A stretch of DNA of 64,000 bases, from positions 17,910 through 81,909 of the forward strand of contig JBGUGD010000014.1 of the NCBI GenBank assembly GCA_041697335.1. Reading direction: 5' to 3'. This DNA is from Vampirovibrionaceae bacterium NZW_1234. GTDB lineage: Bacteria > Cyanobacteriota > Vampirovibrionia > Vampirovibrionales > JAGQHJ01. Shown in pieces: positions 3,757 to 62,121 of the stretch. Under the pieces are notes generated by a model. It was given only the letters and a program-made list of their open reading frames with translations, did not search any database and had not been told where the DNA came from. The position numbers and the translations under genes are program-made. Positions within the stretch are counted from its first letter, which is position 1. Each line of letters starts with the position of its first letter.

Positions 3757-5571
3757 TTGTTTATATATATTATATACAAGCTCCGCTTTGGCGATGCCTC
3801 AGGTAGGTCTTTGAAGGGTTCAATTGTGATTAGCACCAAAGATCTTCTCCTATTTTCCGCAATTCAAAATTTCTCTCGTTCGTCACGAGGGGGAATCTAT
3901 CGTGGGGTAGATGACTCAGGCTCATCTTCAAACAATCCATTCACAACCCTCATCTTCTTGTCGTTTTTAAAGAAATCCAAATCCACCCCAGTCAGTACAA
4001 GCCCCTTTGGCTCGCTCAATCTCCCCTTGAGCAGTGGTGGAAACACGCTCATCATTGGCGGTAATGGCGGGTTGAATTTAGGAGGATACGGCTACTGGAA
4101 TGGCTACGGCCTACCAAGCCAACCCCCAGGCGTGTGCTCCCAACCCGTGTATCCATCCCCTTGCAACACGGTTTGTCTCCCACCGCAACCTACACCGTTG
4201 CCAAGCCCATCACCCACGCCACTGCCACTCCCCACACCAACTCCAGTGCCAGCTCCAGTACCAGTCCCAACACCCGCTCCCACACCAACTCCAACGCCTG
4301 CCACACCCGTTGACCCTTCATCGATACTGGATTTTGCCCCCGTGCTGGTTGGCCGTCAGGCCAATAACAATTTGAATTACACCAATATCGATTCCACCTT
4401 TAACTCGAGTGAGAGCACCCTCAGTAAGACCTACGCTCTCAGCAATTCGCCCTGGGGCGCCAACTACCGTTCTCCTTATATGTATCAGGCCTATCAAGAG
4501 CAAGTCGATTTCTATGCAATGATGGGCCGTAATTTCGACCAAATTGATACCAATCGCGACGGACTGGCATCGGCTTCAGAAATCATGGCACTCGCTGCGA
4601 GATCTGGAAATACAACCAGTATTGAGGCTTCGGACTTTACCCCCGGAACAGCGCCTGCGGATATGACGCCTGTTCCCGTAGGTATTCATGCCCAAACCGG
4701 CGCCATTTTATTTAATGCTACAGCTAATCTTCAAGGAGGTTCATTAGCACCGACACCGAGCCTCAATAAAGCGTACTTTGAAAATCGAAGCCAAGACATC
4801 TTACTCTGGCAAAACTATAATAAATTTCTCTATAGTATCGGAGTCACGTTTGATCACTGGGATACCAATCGAGACGGCAGGTTAAGCAAAGCCGAGCTGG
4901 ATGCTGTTGCAGCCCGCTCAGGTGATCCAACCCGCATTGAAAAATCAGACTTGTTGGGTGCTTCAACGACTCAAACGAACAATACCGGATTCATCCAGTT
5001 CAACCCTGCTAACGTTGGCACCGATCAATTTGGCCAAGTGCAAATTAGCGGTATTTCTCTCGGTGCCAACCAACTGACCACAACGCTGATTGGCCAGTAT
5101 AATGCAACCCCCTGGCAAGAGAGTCAAAATATCACCAACATGTACAGCACTCTCTTCCAGAATTTTAGCCAAGTGGATACCAATAACGACGGTGTTCTCA
5201 GCAGAGCAGAACTCTCAGCCTTTACCGCCAAGTCTGGGGACACAACCAAGTTGGAGGTCACAGATTTTACCCCCGGTACTGTAACGCAGACATTTACCGG
5301 TGTTACCATAAGTTCGAGCAATGATGGGCTTATTTCAATTAATGGCGCCCCTATGTTCGGAACGGACTTCCAGATAACCCGCACAAATCTTCAACAGCGC
5401 CTAAGCGAGTCTGAAAACGGGACCAACTTCAGAAAAATCATGTATAACCTGGGACAAGTAACAAACCGAGTGGATACAAACGGTGATGGCACGCTCAGCC
5501 TTGCTGAACTGAACGCCTTTAAAGCCAGAGCCGGAGATATCACCAAACTGGATTTTGCAGACTTTGCCTGA
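3757..5571 (+). CDS. Large Pro/Thr-linker protein with four EF-hand-like (dockerin-like) Ca-binding repeats
   Basis: PTPLPSPSPTPLPLPTPTPVPAPVPVPTPAPTPTPTP linker, then four spaced repeats matching the 12-residue EF-hand loop: DTNRDGLASASE, DTNRDGRLSKAE, DTNNDGVLSRAE, DTNGDGTLSLAE. Each is followed by a conserved A(A/K)(R/K)SGDxTxIExSDFTPGT tail. No clear signal peptide at the annotated Met, so the start is uncertain. Confidence 0.6.
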   Translation: MFIYIIYKLRFGDASGRSLKGSIVISTKDLLLFSAIQNFSRSSRGGIYRGVDDSGSSSNNPFTTLIFLSFLKKSKSTPVSTSPFGSLNLPLSSGGNTLIIGGNGGLNLGGYGYWNGYGLPSQPPGVCSQPVYPSPCNTVCLPPQPTPLPSPSPTPLPLPTPTPVPAPVPVPTPAPTPTPTPATPVDPSSILDFAPVLVGRQANNNLNYTNIDSTFNSSESTLSKTYALSNSPWGANYRSPYMYQAYQEQVDFYAMMGRNFDQIDTNRDGLASASEIMALAARSGNTTSIEASDFTPGTAPADMTPVPVGIHAQTGAILFNATANLQGGSLAPTPSLNKAYFENRSQDILLWQNYNKFLYSIGVTFDHWDTNRDGRLSKAELDAVAARSGDPTRIEKSDLLGASTTQTNNTGFIQFNPANVGTDQFGQVQISGISLGANQLTTTLIGQYNATPWQESQNITNMYSTLFQNFSQVDTNNDGVLSRAELSAFTAKSGDTTKLEVTDFTPGTVTQTFTGVTISSSNDGLISINGAPMFGTDFQITRTNLQQRLSESENGTNFRKIMYNLGQVTNRVDTNGDGTLSLAELNAFKARAGDITKLDFADFA

Positions 5572-20082: not shown

Positions 20083-21735
20083 TTAAGGTGTGGTTACCTG
20101 CTGGCCTTGAATGGCTTGATAGGCTTCCAGAATCTTGGCAGGAATGGCTCGAACCACTTCCGCATCAATAAAAGGGGACATCATATAGGACTTCAAGGCC
20201 ACAATGGGCTTATCATAGCTGCTGGAGCGATAGTTCTCCGTCAAAGAGAATGCAACACCACGGCCCTCCAGAGATTCTTTATAGAGATAATCAAAAATCG
20301 CCCGGTTAAGTTCGTTATGCCGCTCCAACGACTCCGCATAGGCCGGATCGCGCATTTCATTTAAAAACATCGCCGAGGCATCAATGTCGTCAGGATAAAT
20401 GCGGAACAACGTCACAGAACCATAATTATAGGTGTTCACGCAGGTGATATTGGGGAAAACCTCCAGGGATTCCCGCAACAATTCAGCCATTTCCACCAGA
20501 TGGCCCAGTAAGGACTGATAGCCCTCCTTGCCAAAAAGCAACATATTCGCCATAGCAGCCAGCGGTGCCGCCCCACCTCGAGACGCTTCTAGAGTGTATA
20601 CGCCAGGACAATATTCATCGGCTTGGCGAATATAGGGGATCGTCTCTTTTGAACGGTTCAGCAACTCTAACTCCGAGCGATTTTTCAATAAGAACAGGCT
20701 GGATGTATAAGGAGCAAAGCCGGTTTTATGGAAGTCAATCCCCATAGAGTCAGCCAGATGCAAGTGCCGAATTTTTCGCATCGAATCAGACAGGCGCCGT
20801 AAGGTTCGGACAGAGAAATTCAATTCATTGCGAGAGAAGTCATAGTCGTTAAAGACACTCCAAATCCATCCGATGACGGAATCTGCGTGCACATGGGGCA
20901 CGTAATCAAGCTGGTACTCCTCCACACAGCGATCCCGAATCTCAACCATTTCCTTGAGAGGGTCAATTCCAAAGGAATCGGTTGTCCCCATCGTCGCCAC
21001 AATACAAGCCACCCGGGTGCCTTCAGCCAATACTTCACGTAATTTGGCTTCAAAACACTTGATATCCATATCGTTGTTTTCTGTGGTGGGAATTAAAATT
21101 ACGTTATCCATACCAATTCCAAGCCACGCTGCAATACTCAGCTTGCAATAGTGGGCTGTACCCGAAGCAAAGACCACGGTCTTCTGTGTAATTCCGGTCT
21201 TTAATGTATTGGGGCAAGCTTTTTCCAAACCAATTTTGGTGCCGTAGAAATTGGTTCCGGTCCCCCCAAAGGTGAAAAGTCCCACTGATTCCTCCGGATC
21301 ATAGCCGATTAAATCGGCACACATCCGTGAAACTTCCAATTCGGCCATAGCAACCTGGTTGCTGTATTCAATCCCCACCATGTTGGGGTTATAAATCGCC
21401 CCAATCAGATTTCCCACAATCGAGGGGATGGTCGTCGGTGGGACCACATTGGTCTGAGCATTGGGGTGTCCCCAAATTGTCATGCCACTTAAGTAACGAA
21501 TAATCTGATGAATAGACCATTCAACATTGGAGAAGTTTTCGGGAATCCGATCATGGGACTCGGTATCTGCAGGCTCTTTGGCATAGCCTAAGATGGGAGC
21601 ACTACTTTTGAGTGTATCCACTTGGTCCAAGGCCCGCAAAATGGTATGAATAAAATAAGCATCATGCACTTTATCCGAAGTGGGCTTTGGAAAGGCAAGG
21701 CGGATCTTATCTAAAATTGTTTTGTAATCGCTCAT
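20083..21735 (-). CDS. Pyridoxal-dependent amino-acid decarboxylase (group II; Glu/Tyr/aromatic decarboxylase family)
   Basis: 550 aa. PLP-lysine block DSMGIDFHKTGFAPY (S-x-x-HK). Overall layout is that of group II decarboxylases. Confidence 0.7.
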   Translation of the reverse strand: MSDYKTILDKIRLAFPKPTSDKVHDAYFIHTILRALDQVDTLKSSAPILGYAKEPADTESHDRIPENFSNVEWSIHQIIRYLSGMTIWGHPNAQTNVVPPTTIPSIVGNLIGAIYNPNMVGIEYSNQVAMAELEVSRMCADLIGYDPEESVGLFTFGGTGTNFYGTKIGLEKACPNTLKTGITQKTVVFASGTAHYCKLSIAAWLGIGMDNVILIPTTENNDMDIKCFEAKLREVLAEGTRVACIVATMGTTDSFGIDPLKEMVEIRDRCVEEYQLDYVPHVHADSVIGWIWSVFNDYDFSRNELNFSVRTLRRLSDSMRKIRHLHLADSMGIDFHKTGFAPYTSSLFLLKNRSELELLNRSKETIPYIRQADEYCPGVYTLEASRGGAAPLAAMANMLLFGKEGYQSLLGHLVEMAELLRESLEVFPNITCVNTYNYGSVTLFRIYPDDIDASAMFLNEMRDPAYAESLERHNELNRAIFDYLYKESLEGRGVAFSLTENYRSSSYDKPIVALKSYMMSPFIDAEVVRAIPAKILEAYQAIQGQQVTTP

Positions 21736-21971
21736 ACGGGTAACTCTCCAAGGGTTTTATCGGTGAGGGGCGAGGGGACTCTATCAACAATAGCACGAGA
21801 CAGTCACTAAAAAAGCAGCCAGGACTCTATGGAAAATCAAACCGGTGCAGGCCTTAAAATTGCGCGTCGGTCTTCGCATCCGTCAACACAATCACTCTTT
21901 ATTTTTCTTTGCACAGGCCACTCAAAGGACTACAATAACGATAGCCTCAATAGAAAATAATTTGTATCGTC

Positions 21972-22418
21972 ATGAATTTTACCTACGCACATTTGCTCGT
22001 AAATCACATCCCCATTATTGGCGTGATGATTGTTCTCTTCTATATGGCCATGGGTTTTTTGCTAAAAAGCGATAAGCTCTTTCTCGCCAGTTGGATAGCC
22101 CTACTCGGCCTAACCATCGTTACCGCCTTTGCCTACTGGACAGGCACCCAAGCATTCGGTGGCCTGGCTAAATTCCAGGAAATTAATGTTCAAGCCATCG
22201 GTCATCACGCCCAATGGGCTGGCTATACACTCTGGGGAATGGGAATCAACGCCATCGCGTCGCTGCTAAGTCTATTCTCAGCTTGGAGCAATCAAGGCCA
22301 GACACGGCCTCTTTGTCGCTGGGGCCTATTGATCTACAATCTGCTCCTCTTAGCCGTACTCCTCCAAACAGCCATGCTTGGCGGAAGCATCCGCCATATT
22401 GAAGTGCACAGTCATTGA
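21972..22418 (+). CDS. Small integral membrane protein (4 TM)
   Basis: Hydrophobic segments IPIIGVMIVLFYMAMGFLL, LASWIALLGLTIVTAFAYW, LWGMGINAIASLLSLF and LLIYNLLLLAVLLQTAMLGG. Confidence 0.4.
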   Translation: MNFTYAHLLVNHIPIIGVMIVLFYMAMGFLLKSDKLFLASWIALLGLTIVTAFAYWTGTQAFGGLAKFQEINVQAIGHHAQWAGYTLWGMGINAIASLLSLFSAWSNQGQTRPLCRWGLLIYNLLLLAVLLQTAMLGGSIRHIEVHSH

Positions 22419-22456
22419 GCAGTACCTACGTTTACTTCAATTCAGTCTAAGCAGGA

Positions 22457-24031
22457 TTAATCAAAAAGGGCGTCAAACATATCCGAAATTTCGGAGAAAA
22501 ACCCGCCCATTGCTGAACTACTTTTCTTATCGTCAAGCATATCCATCAACATGACTGTGGTCATCATATCGTTCCCACTTCTGCTCGAACTCTGAGGCCG
22601 GTATTGAGGACGTGGTTGTGGACGGGCCCCCTGGGCTGATGCTGGCCGTGCCCGTCTTGGACGAGATGGAGCAGAAGCCGGCTGGCTCGGGGTATTCATC
22701 AACATCATCAACAACAACAATTCAGTGTCGTCATCACCTTTTTTCTTGCTGGTACCGCTTGCACCCGTGGTGCCTACCGGGCCGGATGCGCCACTGGTAC
22801 CAGTAGTGCCCGTCGTCCCGCCGGGACCCGATGTACCTGTTGCACCTGTGGTTCCCCCAGGGCCGGATGTGCCCGTAGCTCCAGTCGTTCCCCCTGGCCC
22901 CGATGTGCCTGTTGCACCCGTGGTTCCCCCAGGGCCGGATGCGCCACTGGTACCAGTAGTGCCCGTCGTCCCACCGGGGCCAGACGTTCCACTAGAGCCG
23001 CTTGTCCCCGTGGGACCCGTGGTTCCGCTGGGACCGGTTACCCCATCAATGACGGCTGTGGGGTCATTCACCAATGGCAAGCCAGCTCTGGCTCTTAAAT
23101 CGTTAATGGTCTCATGCGTCGGGGTATCATCCATGTACCATATGGTCAGATTGACGCCATTTTTCACAGTGACTTCATCACCACTGGACCGATCGGTGAG
23201 AATACAGTCCCCGTTGGCATCAAAGCGGACATCAATATCGGTGTCCATATAGATAACGTCGGCATTATCGGCACTATTAATAACCAGCCTGTTCTGCAGC
23301 CCCTGACTACTGGCTCCAGACTCCGTCATATCGATGCGATCAATATTATTGCCATTTAAATTCAGGTTAAATACGTTGTTTGCTGCGGTGGCCCCCAATC
23401 GAGTGAAAGTGTCCCGCTTCGACGCAGACGTATCGATATTTACCTGATTCTGGTTACCCAGGATGGACCAGCTGGGTGGGGACTGAAACACAGTGGTATC
23501 CATGGTGGCATCTGCCTTTAAATTCAATGTATTCTGGTTACCCAGGACATCGATATACATCATGCCACTGCCATCCGTATTTAAAGTGTTTCCAGTACCG
23601 GATAGCGAAACAGAACTGCCAAAATTCCCGAGATTCGAAAAGGTCAACGTATTGTTATTGCTGTTCTCCCGCAGGTCAATTCCCTTAAACGTGCCCGATA
23701 CGTTAAACCTATTATTCTGCACACTGGCAAAATGAAAGTAGGCATAGGTAGAATCACCGGAAATATTAACCTGATTATTATTGAACTGATAGTTGAGGGT
23801 TGAAAACGGAAATTCCTGAGATTGGCTGCTGCCAAAGTACATGGCACCTAGTTGCTGTTCCTGGATGGATGTCAAATCAAAGGTCTGCCCAACAGCATCC
23901 ATAAACTGCCTGCCATGGGCTACAGGTAAATTATTGCTCAAGAAAAACCGGATAAAATCTGAATTCGACATCTCTTCGCTTCTCTTTACTCTCCGTTTTC
24001 CAGCCGAGTAACATCGGCATGCAGATCCCAA
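22457..24031 (-). CDS. Surface-fibre-like protein: N-terminal beta-helix-type repeats (LGNQN / N-rich), central collagen-like G-X-T repeats, Pro/Arg-rich plus Met-rich C-terminus
   Basis: The repeat run [55 protein letters not shown]... is an uninterrupted Gly-X-Y run of about 35 triplets. The N-terminus holds repeated NxxLxLxG / LGNQN segments. Likely start at the internal Met MSNSDF. Confidence 0.55.
22770..23010. repeat. Imperfect tandem 36-nt repeats (with a larger ~40-nt duplicated block) encoding the collagen-like region
   Basis: The + strand shows the unit ggnccngatgtncc(t/c)gt(t/a)gc(a/t)cc(t/a)gt(g/c)gttcccccn about four times. The block gggccggatgcgccactggtaccagtagtgcccgtcgtccc occurs at about 22778 and 22938. 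Confidence 0.7.
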
Positions 24032-24154
24032 AAATAACGACCTACATGAATAAAAACCAGAGATATCAAAAAATTGCCTTATTATATCATTCAGATTTAC
24101 AAATTTTCAAAACCGCCCCTTCATTGGCAGACATTCGCACTCATCTCGGGATGA

Positions 24155-25255
24155 TTAATCCCGAATCGGTGTTTTGGGAATGATCACTTTGGGCATCAAA
24201 GCGCTGCCACGAACCACCTGGTTCTTGCCTTGTTTTTTCGCTTCATACAAGGCCTTATCTGCCAGCTCTACCAACTCGAATGCGGTATGATGCCGAGGAT
24301 CCAGTTGGGCAACCCCAACACTAATGGTGATGGTTAAAGGGTTTTCAGGCAGGCAAAACACGGTCTGAGACACCAAGAGACGGATCCGCTCCAGTAATTC
24401 ATAGGCTTCGGTTTCACGCGTCTCGGGCAAAATCAGGGCAAATTCTTCCCCGCCATAGCGAGCCGCCAAGTCGGACTCACGGATATTGTTACGAATCAGG
24501 CGCCCCAACTCTCTCAGGATTCTATCACCTACCGGATGGCCATAGAAGTCATTGAGCCGCTTAAAGTCATCCAGGTCAAACAACGCCAAGGTTAAAGGTG
24601 CTTCATGGCGCCGGGCACGGGCAATTTCCTCATGAAGACGACTGTTAAACTGCCGCCGGTTGGTTAACCCTGTCAAGGCATCGGTTGCAGCCATCGATTG
24701 AAGCTTACCCACTTGTGTCGAGTGGGAGCGCAACAACGACGAGAGCATCAATCCATAAGCATACAGGCAGGCGCCCCAAGCCACCGCTGTCACAATCATC
24801 TCGGCTAGCCCCAAGGTAAAAGACCTCGGGTAAGACAATGGAATACTGCCCAGCAACAGGACCCCGTGCCAGGCCATCAGTATCTTACTGAGCTTGGTCT
24901 GGCCTAAAAACTGGGCCTGCAGCACCGCAAAAAGCCCAAAGGAATAGACCAAAAAACTGCCTGTTAACAGGTAATTGATGGTTGTATAAAGCGCCAAAAC
25001 AACGGGAATAAAGACACTTAAATGCAAAACAGTCTGAAGTTCAGCATCTCGAAGGCGCTTGACAACTTTGAGTAAAAATTCATTGCCCATTAAAAAGCCA
25101 AAATGGACCACCGCCAAACTCATTAAAATGGCTTTCCCACCCCAACCCGGATGATGCCACATCTGCGCAACAGTCAGCCCCACCAGAGTCAACACCAATA
25201 GGCGATTAAAGCGGAAAATCGACTTAAATTGTGTTTCCACCATGGCAAGCATCAC
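24155..25255 (-). CDS. Diguanylate cyclase (GGDEF) with N-terminal 5-6 TM sensor domain
   Basis: RYGGEEFALILPE (GGEEF active site) and DALTGLTNRRQF upstream block. The N-terminal half is polytopic membrane. Confidence 0.85.
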   Translation of the reverse strand: MMLAMVETQFKSIFRFNRLLVLTLVGLTVAQMWHHPGWGGKAILMSLAVVHFGFLMGNEFLLKVVKRLRDAELQTVLHLSVFIPVVLALYTTINYLLTGSFLVYSFGLFAVLQAQFLGQTKLSKILMAWHGVLLLGSIPLSYPRSFTLGLAEMIVTAVAWGACLYAYGLMLSSLLRSHSTQVGKLQSMAATDALTGLTNRRQFNSRLHEEIARARRHEAPLTLALFDLDDFKRLNDFYGHPVGDRILRELGRLIRNNIRESDLAARYGGEEFALILPETRETEAYELLERIRLLVSQTVFCLPENPLTITISVGVAQLDPRHHTAFELVELADKALYEAKKQGKNQVVRGSALMPKVIIPKTPIRD

Positions 25256-35063: not shown

Positions 35064-36350
35064 CTACACCGGCATTAAGGCATCACTTTCCTCAAAGGAA
35101 AGCACGCGATGCACTTCGGCAATCTCGATACTCTTGAGCAGAATGTTATCCAACTCCGCGATACGAGTGCGAAAGACACTCCATTCATCCTGTGGCGCCA
35201 TTAACACCGCTTGCAACCAGGCAGGAGACTGATCCAGTTTATGCAGCCACCCGGCATTAATAATCTCTCTGGGTGATGCTGGCGTTTCCTGAATTTGATG
35301 CAAGATACCATAGACATCAATACCTTCCTGCTCCAGCTTCTGAAGATCCTCACGCAACTGAGCAGGGCTGCCTAGCATCGGCACAGCGCTAATGAGCATC
35401 CCGCGTTCAAGGCGTTCTTCCAGCAATTGACTCTTAAGCAAGGCTTTTTCTGTATACGCCAAGCGTTCCGGAATCACTTTTTCAATGGCTTTCAGGATGC
35501 GATCGGCCACATCTTCTTTACCAAACAGTTGCACAACACTATGGGCTTCTTCGGATACCGGCAAAGACTGCCGCAGACGCTCCAAGGACTGATGAAGAAT
35601 GACCAGATCCTTATTCACCAGACCGAAGCGGTTTAAAGCTTGAAATAAGACCGGCTCCACAGCCTGTAAAACACTAAACTGCTTCAATTCCAAGCTCTTC
35701 AAGACAAAGTAGGCATAATAACCGGGCCCTAACAAACGCAGATTGAGGACCGGGGTAATATACTTTGCTTCTGACTGAGGCACCCCAATTTCCTCAAACA
35801 ACGAGGCCATTTGAATCGACTGAACGGAAAAATACTCGGTAAAACGATCAGCCAGTCCAAACCACGGCAACGGGCTTTGGGCGTCCAAGATGGGGAGGCT
35901 TGACACGATTAAGGACTCAAACGTAGGCAAGTCAGCCTGCTGAGCCTGAGACTCCACGGGAATCACAACCACACCAGGCGCATCCGGCACAAGCTTGGTT
36001 AGCCCAAGGCTGTTGAGATAGAGTTCGGTCTCGGGCAAGACTTCACGCTTCTTCAATTGATACAACGCTTTTCTTACCGGCGCCAAGGAACTGCGGATTT
36101 CAGGAAAAATACTGTTAATACAGTCGTGGATAAACGCCTCGTCCAGCGTGGCTTCCTGGAATGCCAGCAAAAACTGCTCCCGCTGAGCAAAAACACGCTC
36201 TTTAACCCCTTCCATATGGCGCACCAATTGGGTGACATAGGGCAAAATGTTGGCCTCTGCCTGATTTTCCAATTCGTTGAGTTGAAGCTCTAAGCGGCCA
36301 ATTTCCTCTAACAACTCATATAGCAGGCGTTTTAGCAATATTTTATTCAT
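35064..36350 (-). CDS. Hypothetical protein (N-terminal coiled-coil)
   Basis: 428 aa with no motif recognised. Confidence 0.4.
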   Translation of the reverse strand: MNKILLKRLLYELLEEIGRLELQLNELENQAEANILPYVTQLVRHMEGVKERVFAQREQFLLAFQEATLDEAFIHDCINSIFPEIRSSLAPVRKALYQLKKREVLPETELYLNSLGLTKLVPDAPGVVVIPVESQAQQADLPTFESLIVSSLPILDAQSPLPWFGLADRFTEYFSVQSIQMASLFEEIGVPQSEAKYITPVLNLRLLGPGYYAYFVLKSLELKQFSVLQAVEPVLFQALNRFGLVNKDLVILHQSLERLRQSLPVSEEAHSVVQLFGKEDVADRILKAIEKVIPERLAYTEKALLKSQLLEERLERGMLISAVPMLGSPAQLREDLQKLEQEGIDVYGILHQIQETPASPREIINAGWLHKLDQSPAWLQAVLMAPQDEWSVFRTRIAELDNILLKSIEIAEVHRVLSFEESDALMPV

Positions 36351-36587
36351 GGGTGGATTAGCCTATCTTTGTCTTGTGACGCTATGATCTCAGTGACAGT
36401 GTGTATTACCGGCCCCGGATGAAGCCCGTCCGCTACGGACATCACCGACTGCTTTATACATCCCCTGAACTGTTCTTTTTTATACATCACCGGGTAATGC
36501 CACGGAGTCAACCTGAGTGGGGGGATACCACTTGCACCCTAAGTATAGGGAGGACTCCCCCCTGCGACAAGCAAAAGCATGCGTTTG

Positions 36588-37925
36588 TTAAGTAAAGCTT
36601 TGATAAGTGCCCATGGCATCGTAGCACGCACCGCCAGTATACAAGGATCCGGTCACCACTTTCAGCTTGCCTCTTGGGCAGGGTTCTTCTAGGAACTGGG
36701 CAATACTCTGGAGATCAAGATTCACACCGGATGGCAACCTCGGTTCCAAAGCCTTGCTCAAGTTCTCAGGCGAATGGTAGCGATGCACATCCACATCCGC
36801 CAGCACAGTAACCCGACTTGTGGCAGGATAAGCAAGTAGCGGAGCCAAAAGCCCTGGGTCGCGATTTTTCAGCAAACTGATCCCCCAGTGAACCGAGATG
36901 CCGGAAAAATCAGCCGAAAGCGTTTCCAAAAGGGTCTCGATACCCGCTGCATTATGAGAACCATCAATTATAAGCCGCTTTTCCGGATCATACTGGAAGC
37001 GTGCGGGCCAGGTAACATGAGCCAACCCAGCATCCCGTTGTGAAGCAGACCATGGCAAGACAGAGGCCAAGGCTTCCAGAACAGAAAGAACCACAGCCAG
37101 GTTCATGGCCTGATAACGCCCCAGCAACGACAAGTAGAACTCCTCCCCTGTGGGCAGATATTTAACTTGACGCAAAAATCGCCCCTCTTTGAAAACCAGC
37201 GGGCCCAATTCCACTTGATTCGGCTGTACCCATTGTAATCGGGCCTCAATCCGGCGGGCCTGAGCTTCAATCACAACCGCCGCATCGTGTGACTGCAACG
37301 GACTAAACACCAAGCCCCCGGGCTTCATTACCGCCGCTTTCTCCGAGGCAATCTGTCCCAGGGTCTGCCCCAATCGCTCCATATGATCGAAGGACACCGA
37401 AGTCACAATCACAGCGTCGGGGGCAGCCAGCACATTGGTGGAATCCAGTCGTCCCCCCAAGCCCGCCTCGATAACAGCAATATCGACTTGCTGTTCTTGA
37501 AACAGCCAGAAAGCCATTACGGTTAAAAACTCGAAATAGGTCAGCCAGTCTTGTGGCTCGGGCAGAGCAACCAGCATCGCTTCCTGACAAACTTGAGCCG
37601 CTTGCACAAACAAGGCCTCCGACACGGGCAAAGCGTTTAGCCGGATACGTTCTTTCACATCCTGCAAATGGGGACTGGTGAACAACCCCACCCGATAGCC
37701 AGCATGGGTATACACGGACGACAGCATGGCACTCACCGATCCTTTGCCATTGGTCCCAACCACATGAATACTTCGGACCCTGTCCTGGGGGGTATTCAAT
37801 TCAGCCAAAACCCTGGCCACGCGCTCGGTGCCCAGCTTCATTACAGAAACATCCAATTGGTTCAGGTAAGCCTCTACCTGCCCTTGGGACTCAAATGGCA
37901 CTCTTGTATCAGTCAACACCATCAC
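36588..37925 (-). CDS. folC: Folylpolyglutamate synthase / dihydrofolate synthase (Mur ligase family)
   Basis: HVVGTNGKGSVSAMLSSV...TSPHL P-loop block and overall Mur-ligase layout. Confidence 0.75.
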   Translation of the reverse strand: MMVLTDTRVPFESQGQVEAYLNQLDVSVMKLGTERVARVLAELNTPQDRVRSIHVVGTNGKGSVSAMLSSVYTHAGYRVGLFTSPHLQDVKERIRLNALPVSEALFVQAAQVCQEAMLVALPEPQDWLTYFEFLTVMAFWLFQEQQVDIAVIEAGLGGRLDSTNVLAAPDAVIVTSVSFDHMERLGQTLGQIASEKAAVMKPGGLVFSPLQSHDAAVVIEAQARRIEARLQWVQPNQVELGPLVFKEGRFLRQVKYLPTGEEFYLSLLGRYQAMNLAVVLSVLEALASVLPWSASQRDAGLAHVTWPARFQYDPEKRLIIDGSHNAAGIETLLETLSADFSGISVHWGISLLKNRDPGLLAPLLAYPATSRVTVLADVDVHRYHSPENLSKALEPRLPSGVNLDLQSIAQFLEEPCPRGKLKVVTGSLYTGGACYDAMGTYQSFT

Positions 37926-38018
37926 TGCGCTTGAGATACATTCTCTGGAAACAATCCAACTCAGCTCTCATCATGGCATAAAGACAATCGCTCTGAACAC
38001 ATCGGTCCAAAGAGAGAC

Positions 38019-39128
38019 TTAAACCAATTCCCGAGACTTTCCAGTCTGCTCTAAGCGCTGTACCTTGGTTTCTACTAAGGACGCCAGTCGCTTGGCATCA
38101 TGTACAGGAACCGTTTGTACCTCCGGAGCTTGATTTAGCCGCAACCAAGTTCCATTAGGCAAGCCTACGGTCTGATATAAGTTTGCTCTTCGCCCCGAAG
38201 CATCTAACCAGCTACGCGGGTGTAACGATAAACGAGCCCCATTAGGCAGGCTCAAGGCATCCTGATCCACCCTCAGGCCCAATATCGGAGCAACAAATCG
38301 GGCAAAACCACGAATGGCCAAACCTTGCAACGGATGTTCCATGGGAACGAAACCCGCCTGTTGAGGATTCTCTTGAGACAGTACGCGAAGCACATCGCCG
38401 GCTTGATGAACCCATCGTGGTGTAGCCCGTTCCCAGCCGGCTGTTGCATAAGCCATATCGAGTTGATGGAAGAACTGGGGCTTAATCATTTGGCCGGTAA
38501 GATGATGCAAATCAACCTGAGTCAGGCGGGGAGCAGACTCTTTCAACGGTGCTGAATTTTTTGATGTTAACGAACGACCAAAGACAGGCCAACTGGATGT
38601 ATACAGACGGGTCTTACCGGAAAACGGGTTTGAGACAGGGGTTGCAAATCGCTTAGCTTTCTTGGCAGACGGTTGTTTCTCTAACGCATCCGGTGACACA
38701 ACACGCTGTGGCGCCATCGCCTCGTTTAAGGCCGATTCAAACGGGTTGGATGTCTGTGACACCGTTCCCTTGGAAACCCTGGGCTTAGAAACGAACCCTT
38801 GTTTTTGCGCTTCCTTGGGCTTGTCATCCGAAGCCCCAGAAACCCCATGAGGGTCTCGGGCCTGATCCATCTGTGGCTTTAAAAGCAGCACATCACGTTG
38901 ACTGGGGGGCAATACTTTGTCCCAAATCGGGGCGTGGTCATGATTGACGAACGTGAACATGAGCGGTTGCGGAGCCTTCTGAGCAAAAAGGGACATCACT
39001 TTTGCCCGGACCGAGTCGCCAGAAAAGAAGACATCTTTATGTTGTAAAAATTCCAAGCTCCGGCTTGGTTGCGACGCCTTCGGTTGGGTAAAAAAGGGAG
39101 CCGCATGTACACGAGACACAGGTCTCAT
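38019..39128 (-). CDS. Hypothetical Pro/Ser-rich protein downstream of pilO
   Basis: 369 aa. Not a secretin and has no signal peptide. Confidence 0.35.
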   Translation of the reverse strand: MRPVSRVHAAPFFTQPKASQPSRSLEFLQHKDVFFSGDSVRAKVMSLFAQKAPQPLMFTFVNHDHAPIWDKVLPPSQRDVLLLKPQMDQARDPHGVSGASDDKPKEAQKQGFVSKPRVSKGTVSQTSNPFESALNEAMAPQRVVSPDALEKQPSAKKAKRFATPVSNPFSGKTRLYTSSWPVFGRSLTSKNSAPLKESAPRLTQVDLHHLTGQMIKPQFFHQLDMAYATAGWERATPRWVHQAGDVLRVLSQENPQQAGFVPMEHPLQGLAIRGFARFVAPILGLRVDQDALSLPNGARLSLHPRSWLDASGRRANLYQTVGLPNGTWLRLNQAPEVQTVPVHDAKRLASLVETKVQRLEQTGKSRELV

Positions 39129-39245
39129 GGTAATCTCCTAACTCTCCGCTGAAGACACCCGTTGGGTATCGTTCCTACAATATACCGTAAATGATGATGA
39201 TTGTTTAGCAAAAGTTCATGAGAACCATGAGGGATTAACAATTCT

Positions 39246-39788
39246 TTACAAGGATTTCTCAATCACATACATATCCAACCGAACGACACCCAGCAGCATA
39301 GAGCCTTTATCCTCTTTGATTGTGGGGTCTTTTGCGGGCAATGAGCCCAGATTCTTCAGCTCTACCATTTGTACCACCACATTGGGAAAGTGCTGAATAA
39401 CCTGGGACAGAAATTTCTGGATGGAAAAATAGGGTCCACTCAACTGCACCGTAATAGGAATTCGCTTCACCATAGACGGAAACCGGGGATCAGAAACCGC
39501 CTTGGAAGGATCGCCTGCGATTTCAGTGAGATAAATCCCTGCTTCCACACTCTGGTTAAACAACGGAGATACAATACGAGACTGCCAGGCCTCTGTATGT
39601 TTTAAGCGAAGCTCCGGCAACGTCGCCAGTGGCTTGGGGATGTAATTAACCGGGTCATTCAACTCCACTTGATAACGTCCATGGGCTTCAATGGCCGGCT
39701 TGAGCACCAGCACCGAAATCACCGAGGAAGCAGCCAGCATGGCCAACAACAGAAACCATTGACGAAGCGTCAATCCGGATGTGCTCAT
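39246..39788 (-). CDS. pilO: Type IV pilus assembly protein PilO-like
   Basis: 180 aa with N-terminal TM LTLRQWFLLLAMLAASSVISVLVL followed by a periplasmic domain. Placed immediately after the PilM-N gene, with start and stop overlapping. Confidence 0.5.
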   Translation of the reverse strand: MSTSGLTLRQWFLLLAMLAASSVISVLVLKPAIEAHGRYQVELNDPVNYIPKPLATLPELRLKHTEAWQSRIVSPLFNQSVEAGIYLTEIAGDPSKAVSDPRFPSMVKRIPITVQLSGPYFSIQKFLSQVIQHFPNVVVQMVELKNLGSLPAKDPTIKEDKGSMLLGVVRLDMYVIEKSL

Positions 39789-41239
39789 GGTTTTTTAGTC
39801 TCCTGCTTAGCTTGAGCCTGACCCGAGCCTGTTGCATCTTGAAGAATTTTCCCCGTAAAGCTGAATTGGCTTAAAATCTTCTCCCCATCCGAAGGCATCA
39901 CAAATCGTTTTTGGGCTTTGATTTGAAACGGCTTGAGCTCAGAGGCGGAAACAAGTGCGTCGATAAAGGCATTTGCCTTTTGGGCTTGCGCCGCCTTTCC
40001 GGAAATGTTCACCCGCTCAGGCATCTCAACCCGCAAGTAATCAATCTGGACTTGAGCCGCATTTTTATTAATCACGTCCATCAGTTTTTGATAAAACCCA
40101 TTCTGCTGGTGTAAAGCTGAAATGGTAGATGACAGTGCTTCATCACGTTGGCGGAGCTGAGCATCCAGCTGTGTATTTTGAAAAATATAATACCCGCTCG
40201 TCCCTAAAACCCCGAGCATCACAAAAAACGAGATTATCAATAAAAAGCGCAATACCGTTGCTTTGGCACGCACCGCTGTTCGATGAGAAACATGATGCTT
40301 GGCTGAAGCCCCACGTCTGGATGCTAAAAAATCCCAGGCCAAAGGGAAAGGCACTTCCTGCTTTAATGCAGCCCCTAGAGCCGCTGCCGATGGCTGATTG
40401 GGGTAACTTCCATACAAGGGCCCTAAAACCGCCTGACGAACAGGAGCGCCCAACTTCAGCTGAAGCAGATCCATCGGCTGCTTGACACCCTGCTCGGACC
40501 AGGCAAACCAGAGATTCGGCTGACTGATGCCCATTCCTAACATGGGTTCCATGAGTCGCTCCTGCATACTCGCCATATCCGCGGGTATGGTAAACGTGCC
40601 AATGTAGATCAGGTTGGTCCCCTGCCAAATGGTCTGCCACGTTTGAGAACCGACCACACCAAAGCAACCCCACACCGCATCGGAACCTAGGCGCCGCAGC
40701 AATGCGTCCAACACGCCTGAGGCCGCCATGCCCCGCAAGACCGCCAAGGGCAAAATATCCACTCCCTGCAAGGGATAGCCTGCCTCTTCAAAGACTTGAA
40801 AAAAGTGTTTAAGCTCATTATCACCATAAAACGCATACGCAATGGCCGCATGGTCCCCATGTTGCCAAAGCATAGAGTATTGCACAATGGGCGTATCTCC
40901 GGCCAAAACCCCTTCTTCAGAAATTAATTGGGGTAAGCCCTCTCTCAAGGCATGCACATCGCCCACCGAAAAGGCACGGGTGGCTAAAAAAGGTGTGTAA
41001 AATGTTAAATACACGGGATAGGCAACATCGGGCTGTCCTAAAGCAGCAAAAAGCCCACGAATCGCTGCCACCAACGTGGGTGTATCCAGAATCCGTTTGC
41101 CGTCGTGCGCCATCGTCGCTGGGGGCAATGGCTGGTGTTCATAGGCTTGGAGAGAAAAATCCTCAGCCGAAACTTTGACCCCACTAATATGGGTGGGCGA
41201 GATGGAAATACCGATTAAACTGGATGACGACTTGCTCAC
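39785..41239 (-). CDS. pilMN: PilM-PilN fusion (actin-like ATPase domain, then TM and coiled-coil)
   Basis: N-terminus LIGISISPTHISGVKV resembles the PilM start (iGiDiGs..ik.v). An internal TM (VLRFLLIISFFVMLGVLGTSGYYIF) plus a coiled-coil and C-terminal domain resemble PilN. Confidence 0.55.
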   Translation of the reverse strand: MSKSSSSLIGISISPTHISGVKVSAEDFSLQAYEHQPLPPATMAHDGKRILDTPTLVAAIRGLFAALGQPDVAYPVYLTFYTPFLATRAFSVGDVHALREGLPQLISEEGVLAGDTPIVQYSMLWQHGDHAAIAYAFYGDNELKHFFQVFEEAGYPLQGVDILPLAVLRGMAASGVLDALLRRLGSDAVWGCFGVVGSQTWQTIWQGTNLIYIGTFTIPADMASMQERLMEPMLGMGISQPNLWFAWSEQGVKQPMDLLQLKLGAPVRQAVLGPLYGSYPNQPSAAALGAALKQEVPFPLAWDFLASRRGASAKHHVSHRTAVRAKATVLRFLLIISFFVMLGVLGTSGYYIFQNTQLDAQLRQRDEALSSTISALHQQNGFYQKLMDVINKNAAQVQIDYLRVEMPERVNISGKAAQAQKANAFIDALVSASELKPFQIKAQKRFVMPSDGEKILSQFSFTGKILQDATGSGQAQAKQETKKP

Positions 41240-60042: not shown

Positions 60043-62121
60043 TTAGCCTTCCAATCCCTCATCCTGAGGAACGGTCAACCAGGGATAAATGAAATCCTGG
60101 GCATCAATGAAGCGATCAAAGGGACTGGAGTTAGCGGCCAGGGCAGTAAAAACGTTATTGGTTTCAGTACCCAGATCAATCATCCCATCGCCATCGGGAT
60201 CCACCAGCGAAGCACTGGTCCCGAAGAGATCCTTCATCCATGAAGCCTGGTTCAATACATTTTCAATGGCTTGTGCAATCAAATATTGACTTACTTGGCC
60301 ATTGTTGCCTGCAGCTTCACGTCCCAAGGCCAATTCTTCGGCACTGACTTTATTGTCGTTGTTAGTATCGTACTTTTTGAACCAACTGCGAACCGTCGAT
60401 GCCGTTTCTGGCATCCAATCAAACTGCACTGCTTTCGTATCTTCTATGGAAAGCCGGTCAGAATCACCGAATGCCGCTGCCAAGTGATTGGCTTCGCTAT
60501 AGCGACGATTTTCACCACTGCAACCGCAGTCATAATTCAACTTACCATCACCGTTGATATCCAGAACTGGTGAGCCCATCTTGAGAAGATCTGCCAGATG
60601 GCGAGCTGCATTGGCAAAGTCATCCTGATTTTTGCTTGCAAAGAACTTGGCTGCTTCACTCAGTTCCCGAACACTCAAAGCGTTATCTTTATTTTTGTCA
60701 AAATCATTGGCTTTGGTCATTGCGAAAATCAGGTTGTTAACATTGACTTCATCAAACTTGGGCAGGAAGGGCATGTAACTGCCAATTTTACGTAATAACC
60801 CGGTTAAAGGCTGAGTTCTGGCATTGAAGGTTTCACCCAGAATACCTTCCGGCAAATCATCTGCTTTAACACCCTTGGCACCGGATTTGACTTCAATACT
60901 CAGGCTGTTACCGTCCACTTCAGAGCCTTGATGAGACTTCACAATCGTAGTCATCCCATCCGGAGTTGTGATTTCAACCTGATCGGCTGCAATCAACTTG
61001 TAAACAGTGCCATCTTCTGTGGTATGTGTTGCTTTCGCCGTTGTCAGCGTAATGGTCTTCAGAGCAAACGGTGCATCTTTGTCCGTAATCTTGAGTTGAG
61101 CGATATTGTCGGCATTCAACTCAACAACGTTGGCCCCGGATTTGATGGAAAGCGTTCTCGGCAATAAGGCAGATCCTTTTACTTCAGCCAGGGCTTGCTG
61201 ATAGGCTTCATTATTAATGGCCGTGATGTCGACAGGATCCTCTTCACCGTCGATCTCTTCGCCCTCGTCAACCCCTTCGATGTCGCCGCCTTCTAAAATG
61301 GTTACCGGGGCACTATCTTTGAGAGGAGCAAGATTACGTTGATAACCAACGGAAATCATAATTTCTGCTAAACCATTGTCCTCATCATTATGATAGACAA
61401 TAAATTCCTGTAAGCCCGTGATTTGTTCTTCCGTCTCAACACTTGTATCTAAGGGCAGCGTGTATTTTTCACCCTTGGCACCGGTAATCTGGTTCCCGAC
61501 CAGAGTTGCTGATTTATTGGCAGCCACCAGTGTTGAAGTCGGATTGTTGACAGGTGCAGGCGTAATATCATCGTCATCGTCATCATCCTCGTCGTCATCG
61601 ACATCTTGGACGTTATCCGTTTTCTTGGGGCTGGCGGCCTTCAGTATGGCGCTCAAGATCAACATATTCACCAAATCATCGGTCAAACCGAATAACGATC
61701 CTAAACCTTGATTGCTCTTCGGTAAGCCACTGATGCTGTTACCGGCAATGGCCGTGGCTGAACCGAAGAAATTGCGAAGTGCGCCTAAGCCACTGCCTCG
61801 AGCCAGTGTGGAAGCAGGAAAGAAACCGCCCGGGGATGCAAGTGCAAGCTTGGCTCTCGGATCGGCATAGGCGTTGGGAAATCCTTGAGGGTTGCTAAAC
61901 CAGGAGTTGATAGGTGTGTTAGGCATGCCATAAGCCATTTCAGGCAGCATGGTGAAATCCACCATGTCAAAGGGCATGGGTTCAATTCTCGGATCAGAAT
62001 ACCCTCCAGGATTCACAGGAGGAAAAGAAGCACCCGGATAATTTCCAGGAGCACCATAAAATGCGGCCCCAGGAAAGCCACCTGCTTGATAGGCTGATCT
62101 GACAAAATCCATCACACACAA
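60043..62121 (-). CDS. Large low-complexity surface protein: G/P/Y-rich N-terminus, poly-Asp/Glu tract, C-terminal EF-hand/dockerin-like loops
   Basis: N-terminus GGFPGAAFYGAPGNYPGASFPP..., acidic run DVDDDEDDDDDDDITP. Loops: DKNKDNALSVRE, DTNNDNKVSAEE (canonical 12-residue EF loops with N at position 6), and the degenerate DINGDGKLNYDC and DPDGDGMIDLGTE. Confidence 0.5.
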   Translation of the reverse strand: MCVMDFVRSAYQAGGFPGAAFYGAPGNYPGASFPPVNPGGYSDPRIEPMPFDMVDFTMLPEMAYGMPNTPINSWFSNPQGFPNAYADPRAKLALASPGGFFPASTLARGSGLGALRNFFGSATAIAGNSISGLPKSNQGLGSLFGLTDDLVNMLILSAILKAASPKKTDNVQDVDDDEDDDDDDDITPAPVNNPTSTLVAANKSATLVGNQITGAKGEKYTLPLDTSVETEEQITGLQEFIVYHNDEDNGLAEIMISVGYQRNLAPLKDSAPVTILEGGDIEGVDEGEEIDGEEDPVDITAINNEAYQQALAEVKGSALLPRTLSIKSGANVVELNADNIAQLKITDKDAPFALKTITLTTAKATHTTEDGTVYKLIAADQVEITTPDGMTTIVKSHQGSEVDGNSLSIEVKSGAKGVKADDLPEGILGETFNARTQPLTGLLRKIGSYMPFLPKFDEVNVNNLIFAMTKANDFDKNKDNALSVRELSEAAKFFASKNQDDFANAARHLADLLKMGSPVLDINGDGKLNYDCGCSGENRRYSEANHLAAAFGDSDRLSIEDTKAVQFDWMPETASTVRSWFKKYDTNNDNKVSAEELALGREAAGNNGQVSQYLIAQAIENVLNQASWMKDLFGTSASLVDPDGDGMIDLGTETNNVFTALAANSSPFDRFIDAQDFIYPWLTVPQDEGLEG

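Follow-up and report, generated by a model that had tools for sequence, protein, structure and literature searches.

In this work we have examined a gene for a collagen-like protein on the minus strand of a 64,000-nucleotide stretch of bacterial DNA (contig JBGUGD010000014.1, positions 17,910 to 81,909; the whole stretch is called the window below, and all coordinates are counted from its first letter). The protein joins an N-terminal head, modelled as a beta-solenoid, to an unbroken run of 33 Gly-X-Y triplets and a C-terminal tail, and in its one homologue, P0002, the head and the tail are conserved while the middle has been swapped. With moderate confidence we propose that it forms a trimeric fibre of head, stalk and tail on the cell surface. 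According to this model, three chains would assemble in parallel, and their 33 triplets, 99 residues with a rise of about 0.29 nm each, would form a triple helix of the collagen type about 28 nm in length, with the beta-solenoid heads at the distal end, where they would bind, or possibly cut, a glycan or other surface ligand. The conserved tail of 70-96 residues would hold the fibre in the envelope, act as an uncleaved C-terminal export signal, or do both, and transcription would start from the gene's own promoter. Export by a non-Sec route is part of the model because the protein has no Sec signal peptide. The parts of the gene are the following.

22457..23971, minus strand: most likely coding sequence, with an ATG start, supported by the N-terminal alignment with P0002 and by codon usage.
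23786..23971, minus strand: N-terminal 62 residues, predicted to be disordered and without a signal peptide.
23063..23785, minus strand: predicted beta-solenoid head, amino acids 63-303, about 8 coils in the structure model.
22748..23044, minus strand: collagen-like stalk, 33 unbroken Gly-X-Y triplets matching PF01391.
22694..22729, minus strand: tail motif 1, acidic and then hydrophobic, amino acids 415-426; aligns with DTLDELLPLFLLQN of P0002.
22574..22693, minus strand: Arg/Pro-rich linker of the tail, amino acids 427-466; aligns with SRRRSVSRSPFGAPMRRQPQPP of P0002.
22529..22570, minus strand: tail motif 2, hydrophobic with an acidic end, amino acids 468-481; aligns with FNLFLLFLLLDD of P0002.
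22460..22507, minus strand: predicted amphipathic helix at the extreme C-terminus, amino acids 489-504, with no counterpart in P0002.

A sequence-only reading of this locus had called the product a collagen-like repeat protein with an N/Q-rich, beta-helix-like N-terminal domain and a C-terminus rich in Arg and Pro and then in Met, and this general description has held up. The Pfam Collagen model PF01391 scores 36 bits against the stalk, above its gathering cutoff of 27.2, and together with the unbroken run this places the protein in the bacterial collagen-like class. The same reading was right that the run is uninterrupted, but its count of about 35 triplets has to be replaced by 33, at 22748..23044, which are amino acids 310-408 of the 504-residue protein and 330-428 of the 524-residue open reading frame (ORF). 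Glycine occupies every third position through all 99 residues, including the flanks that lie outside the repeated units (ORF residues 330-350 and 417-428). Position X is filled by 17 Thr, 8 Pro and 6 Ala (24 % Pro) and position Y by 14 Thr, 13 Ser and 5 Gly (42 % Thr); only one triplet is GPT. Proline is the commonest residue at X and threonine predominates at Y in bacterial collagen-like regions (PMC8968730), and the composition of the stalk is typical of such regions except for its excess of Thr at X.

The second line of evidence comes from P0002, a protein of 582 residues and the one relative found in protein searches that together covered about 15 billion proteins (exhaustive HMMER search of 1.84 billion representatives, E 9.6e-6). 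Its head aligns with that of the collagen-like protein at a pairwise E of 1e-14, with 30 % identity over 174 residues, and the two tails are 43 % identical. What lies between them in P0002 is rich in Ser, Thr, Gln and Gly and has neither Gly-X-Y triplets nor any glycine periodicity. Since head and tail are kept while the middle is swapped, we take these two to be the conserved, presumably functional parts, and the collagen run is therefore an exchangeable stalk. A word-index search of 5.8 billion proteins, made with the head and also with a profile of both heads, returned only the query itself, and a profile of both tails gave nothing at E <=10. There were no related loci in genome or metagenome contigs, no tblastn match in plasmid records and no paralogues within the window. 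When Pfam and NCBIfam models were applied, the collagen-like repeat was the only part of the protein to be matched, and P0002 was left unmatched by Pfam. As a separate observation, the place of the collagen run is taken in P0002 by two tandem modules of about 90-95 residues (VVQVNNG...VQTSQTTASGTTN), perhaps a stalk domain of another kind.

In the head, the motif [GNQ]-N-x-hydrophobic-N-hydrophobic recurs in about 8 repeats of 19-28 amino acids each, which form the coils of the modelled solenoid and are followed by a small beta cap and a short helix (amino acids 289-296). The residues before it were modelled by AF2 with a predicted local distance difference test (pLDDT) score below 50 (residues 1-28 and 35-62). 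Structures of known adhesins, namely Awp1, Ag43, UpaB, Hap, PfbA and SRRP, are found in the fold-search lists, as generic matches of 5-17 % identity, and a sequence-profile search of the PDB gave no match. The head is acidic and rich in Asn, Ser and Thr; the whole protein, with an isoelectric point of 4.5, a single Cys and an abundance of Gly, Thr, Ser and Asn, has a composition that fits an extracellular protein.

The tail comprises the last 96 amino acids, which are of low complexity and modelled as disordered. Its pattern, DT-x-ELL-hydrophobic-N, then an Arg/Pro-rich linker and then a hydrophobic patch ending in DD, recurs in the same order in P0002, where DTLDELLPLFLLQN is followed by an SRRRSVSRS..RRQPQPP linker and FNLFLLFLLLDD. 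In the collagen-like protein the patches that flank the linker are rich in Leu and Met; what is conserved with P0002 is the hydrophobicity and not the methionine. We had also considered these Met-rich patches as copper-binding 'Mets' motifs and rejected the idea, as P0002 has Leu or Phe at those places. The AF2 model contains a helix at residues 489-503, of low confidence.

Is this enough to speak of a collagen fibre on the cell surface? Several observations weigh against it. The run contains few prolines and no charged pairs. Persikov and Brodsky, in host-guest peptide work, reportedly found a low triple-helix propensity for Thr at X and for Ser or Gly at Y, and unglycosylated (Gly-Pro-Thr)10 is said to form no helix at all. 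As P0002 has no Gly-X-Y, the family does not depend on a triple helix. The beta-solenoid fold of the head comes from a model built on a two-sequence alignment, and Foldseek searches with this model gave a best E of 0.17 in the PDB, which is not significant, and nothing significant in BFVD. There are further objections on the side of export: we found no signal peptide and no transmembrane segment (the highest Kyte-Doolittle mean over 19 residues is 0.7 for the entire protein), no LPXTG, PEP-CTERM or RTX motif and no match to the NCBIfam sorting-signal models, so that the protein has neither a signal peptide nor a known sorting signal, and secretion-system genes were not recognised among the window ORFs scanned.

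The points concerning the stalk could also be explained if the Gly-X-Y run were a flexible, perhaps O-glycosylated spacer resembling PT or mucin linkers, and the protein a monomeric beta-solenoid on a disordered tether. The Ser/Thr/Gln-rich segment of P0002 at the equivalent place would suit such a spacer, as would a run that has only 8 prolines and no charged residue, and the AF2 model of the monomer is disordered at residues 304-494. A spacer, though, would have no need of a glycine at every third residue through 99 residues, non-repeated flanks included; the run scores above the Pfam Collagen cutoff, and a model of the monomer is unable to show a triple helix in any case. For these reasons we regard the spacer as possible but doubtful and keep to the collagen-type stalk, with the reservation that its stability probably needs the flanking domains, because the stalk is Thr/Ser-rich, uncharged and contains so few prolines; perhaps O-glycosylation contributes as well.

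The points concerning export raise another question: could the protein stay inside the cell, as a scaffold or envelope-associated protein held by its tail at the inner face of the membrane? Like the collagen-like protein, P0002 has no signal peptide, which together with the failure to recognise secretion genes among the scanned ORFs would be in keeping with this, and the two short hydrophobic patches with the Arg-rich linker between them could make an in-plane membrane anchor. Against it stands the acidic, Cys-poor, Asn/Ser/Thr-rich composition, and proteins with collagen-like stalks and beta-solenoid heads belong, to our knowledge, to cell surfaces, spores or virions. We consider an intracellular location improbable. 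If the fibre is on the surface, how does it get there? Type I secretion finds little to recommend it, in that the protein has no GGxGxD motif and the window yielded a single ABC ATPase, of the type found in oligopeptide importers, although an uncleaved C-terminal signal as such is conceivable. It may be that the tail is a previously undescribed C-terminal export-and-anchor signal of Melainabacteria-like bacteria, by which fibres without a signal peptide, on swappable stalks of collagen or of Ser/Thr-rich sequence, are displayed; we put this forward as speculation that is unlikely to be correct.

Among the known systems with which we compared the protein, it may, by analogy in the order of its parts, work most like the streptococcal collagen-like proteins Scl1 and Scl2, in which a globular head at the N-terminus is likewise followed by a collagen-like stalk that lacks hydroxyproline and by a C-terminal region for attachment to the envelope. 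The match to Scl models is confined to Gly-X-Y and lies far under the cutoffs (NF038329, 48.4 bits against 325; NF038330, 43.8 against 400). Unlike Scl, the collagen-like protein has no signal peptide or LPXTG motif, and its head is modelled as a beta-solenoid and not as the helical V domain of Scl; its stalk is uncharged, whereas polar and charged residues abound in those of Scl (PMC8968730). BclA, the Bacillus exosporium protein to which the sequence-only reading had likened it, shares the Thr-rich Gly-X-Y stalk and the lack of a signal peptide. The likeness did not survive closer comparison: the polarity is opposite, with the anchor of BclA at the N-terminus and its globular C1q-like trimerisation domain at the C-terminus, and the BclA structure 1wck matches residues 308-416 of the query only, which is the repeat (E 0.007). 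No C-terminal C1q/TNF-like trimeric domain was found in the collagen-like protein, whose head is N-terminal, and the window's GyrA is nearest, among the matches listed, to Melainabacteria and not to the spore-forming Bacillota.

The Lcl protein of Legionella carries a signal peptide and leaves the cell by type II secretion. It resembles the protein described here in being a collagen-like protein of a Gram-negative bacterium, but its globular domain is C-terminal where ours is an N-terminal head, and the Lcl model NF046116 matches the repeat alone, at 42.5 bits where the cutoff is 500. Lcl is a peripheral surface protein that binds glycans and has no covalent anchor (PMC11162425). The fibrillar adhesins, both autotransporters and serine-rich-repeat proteins, offer a further parallel, as they too carry a beta-solenoid head on a repetitive or low-complexity stalk whose type is swapped between homologues; the collagen-like protein differs from them in having no autotransporter barrel, LPXTG motif or signal peptide. 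Finally, collagen-like shafts and beta-helix depolymerase heads occur in phage tail fibres and tailspikes, and one might think of a protein left over from, or carried by, a phage, a tailocin or a contractile injection system. Such an origin is very improbable. Nearly all PHROG matches, the strongest included, are essentially confined to the Gly-X-Y region and we saw no relation to phage proteins outside it; the head matched nothing in 50,697 phage records searched by tblastn or in viral contigs (IMG/VR), and nothing significant among BFVD folds; and the gene has chromosomal neighbours and host-like codon usage, with no phage genes recognised among the window ORFs scanned. Judged by its sequence, the protein would thus be assigned only to the broad class of bacterial collagen-like proteins.

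We also considered the DNA that encodes the stalk, which consists of three 36-nt units (12 residues each) between two 45-nt units (15 residues each). The sequence-only reading had described near-identical 36-nt tandem repeats at 22770..23010 and a likely hypervariable, slipped-strand locus. A contingency locus of this kind, in which mispairing of the 36-nt units would alter the length of the stalk, is compatible with the other readings and has the presence of the 36- and 45-nt units in its favour. The near-identity, however, was overstated, and the DNA itself weakens the case for slippage: between neighbouring 36-nt units the identity is 75-78 % (77 % matches by Tandem Repeats Finder), and no exact run at offset 36 is longer than 8 nt, so that there is no tract of identical tandem units. 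Alternate 36-nt units are more alike (offset 72, 94 % identity, longest exact run 22 nt), and so are the two 45-nt units (offset 153, 96 % identity, longest exact run 41 nt). The sole long exact repeat in the run is the following pair.

22932..22972, minus strand: 41-nt exact direct repeat, first copy, within a 45-nt unit.
22779..22819, minus strand: 41-nt exact direct repeat, second copy, 153 nt from the first.

Units of the same peptide differ at 21 nucleotides in total, every one of them at codon position 3, and the peptide therefore appears to have been kept rather than recently copied. The copies have drifted synonymously, which argues against recent slippage or homogenisation and suggests that they are old. 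We found no second allele in any collection searched. Contingency by slippage is therefore unlikely in our view. The stalk could still be altered in another way: the 41-nt repeat at 153 nt and the 22-nt run at offset 72 could support in-frame recombination, and recombination between the 41-nt copies would add or remove 17 triplets.

The collagen-like ORF is a real gene. In the list of ORFs it extends over 22457..24031 on the minus strand and gives 524 amino acids from a TTG at 24031. We prefer the ATG at 23971 as the start (504 amino acids and a stop codon) because the N-terminus from there aligns with that of P0002; the source annotation starts at Met44 (23902), for a protein of 481 amino acids. 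The G+C content at third codon positions is 0.50-0.55, compared with 0.56 in host genes, and codon usage is also similar. Two further features bear on the expression of the gene and on its strand.

24081..24110, minus strand: sigma-70-type promoter-like site, TTGAAA, an 18-nt spacer and a TG-extended TATAAT.
22725..23252, plus strand: antisense shadow ORF of 175 amino acids with a 12-residue repeat, which mirrors the Gly-X-Y run.

The promoter-like site, with 11 of 12 positions matching, ranks first within 21700..24400 as a match to the consensus only, and it sits in the gap of about 180 nt before the collagen-like gene. The shadow ORF is an artefact of the Gly-X-Y run and not a gene; nothing apart from the repeat supports it. 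Since it has the same codon third positions as the true frame on the minus strand, arguments from synonymous sites cannot separate the two frames, and we gave up the third-position differences as a proof of the coding strand. The minus strand is settled by the length of the 1.5-kb ORF, by the homologue P0002 and by the folded head.

Which bacterium carries this gene? The window's GyrA is 69 % identical to that of Melainabacteria/Gastranaerophilales and at most 56 % to the next group, Bacillota included, among the matches listed in a scan limited to loci that match its peptide patterns, so that there may be closer relatives. The host probably belongs to the non-photosynthetic relatives of the cyanobacteria (Vampirovibrionia). 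Every window protein found in the collection, housekeeping enzymes such as the dCTP deaminase and UbiE among them, forms a cluster of its own at 90 % identity, and the lineage appears to have been sampled once. The gene's nearest neighbour on its own strand is the following.

24155..25255, minus strand: GGDEF gene, PF00990, E 4.9e-50.

It encodes a membrane protein with an intact GGEEF motif and a RESD I-site five residues upstream of it. A GGDEF cyclase had been noted immediately downstream of the collagen-like gene; the two do adjoin, but both are on the minus strand, so that in terms of transcription the GGDEF gene lies upstream. Adjacency is the one link between them, and co-transcription is unsupported, the promoter-like site lying between the two. 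On the other side, 21972..22418 (plus strand) encodes a 148-residue multi-pass membrane protein without a family match, which converges on the collagen-like gene; the stop codons are 38 nt apart and there is no convincing terminator between the two genes. Other neighbours, a pyridoxal phosphate-dependent decarboxylase, a dicarboxylate symporter and the oligopeptide ABC ATPase, are ordinary chromosomal genes, and nothing was found when the window was scanned for Rfam families and tRNAs. Elsewhere in the window, 3757..5571 (plus strand) and 60043..62121 (minus strand) encode proteins of 604 and 692 amino acids with multiple EF-hand calcium-binding motifs, which are unusual in bacteria, and with no family for the rest of their length. 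At 35064..41239 (minus strand) lie ORFs of 428, 369, 180 and 484 amino acids without a Pfam or NCBIfam family, and among them a gene with a Mur-ligase middle domain; the 484-residue ORF has a faintly PilM-like N-terminus (TIGR01175, E 1.8e-4, far under the cutoff), and the run may be a divergent cluster for a pilus or its assembly.

Among bacteria, collagen-like proteins flanked by novel domains are common, and the only unusual points here are the unexplained conserved tail and the absent export signal; in other respects the protein is of an ordinary kind, from a lineage that has barely been sampled. With two members in the family, what we say of its significance is inferred. If the proposed fibre is real, it would add a collagen-like surface fibre to the Melainabacteria, a group (Vampirovibrionia included) for which our literature search found no report of collagen-like proteins. 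The uncharged, proline-poor sequence of G-T-T, G-A-T and G-T-S triplets would be a useful test case for how bacterial triple helices are stabilised. The two homologues would then make a natural pair in which stalks of collagen and of Ser/Thr-rich sequence can replace one another between the same head and tail, and perhaps the tail that they share indicates an export or anchoring route that has so far gone unrecognised.

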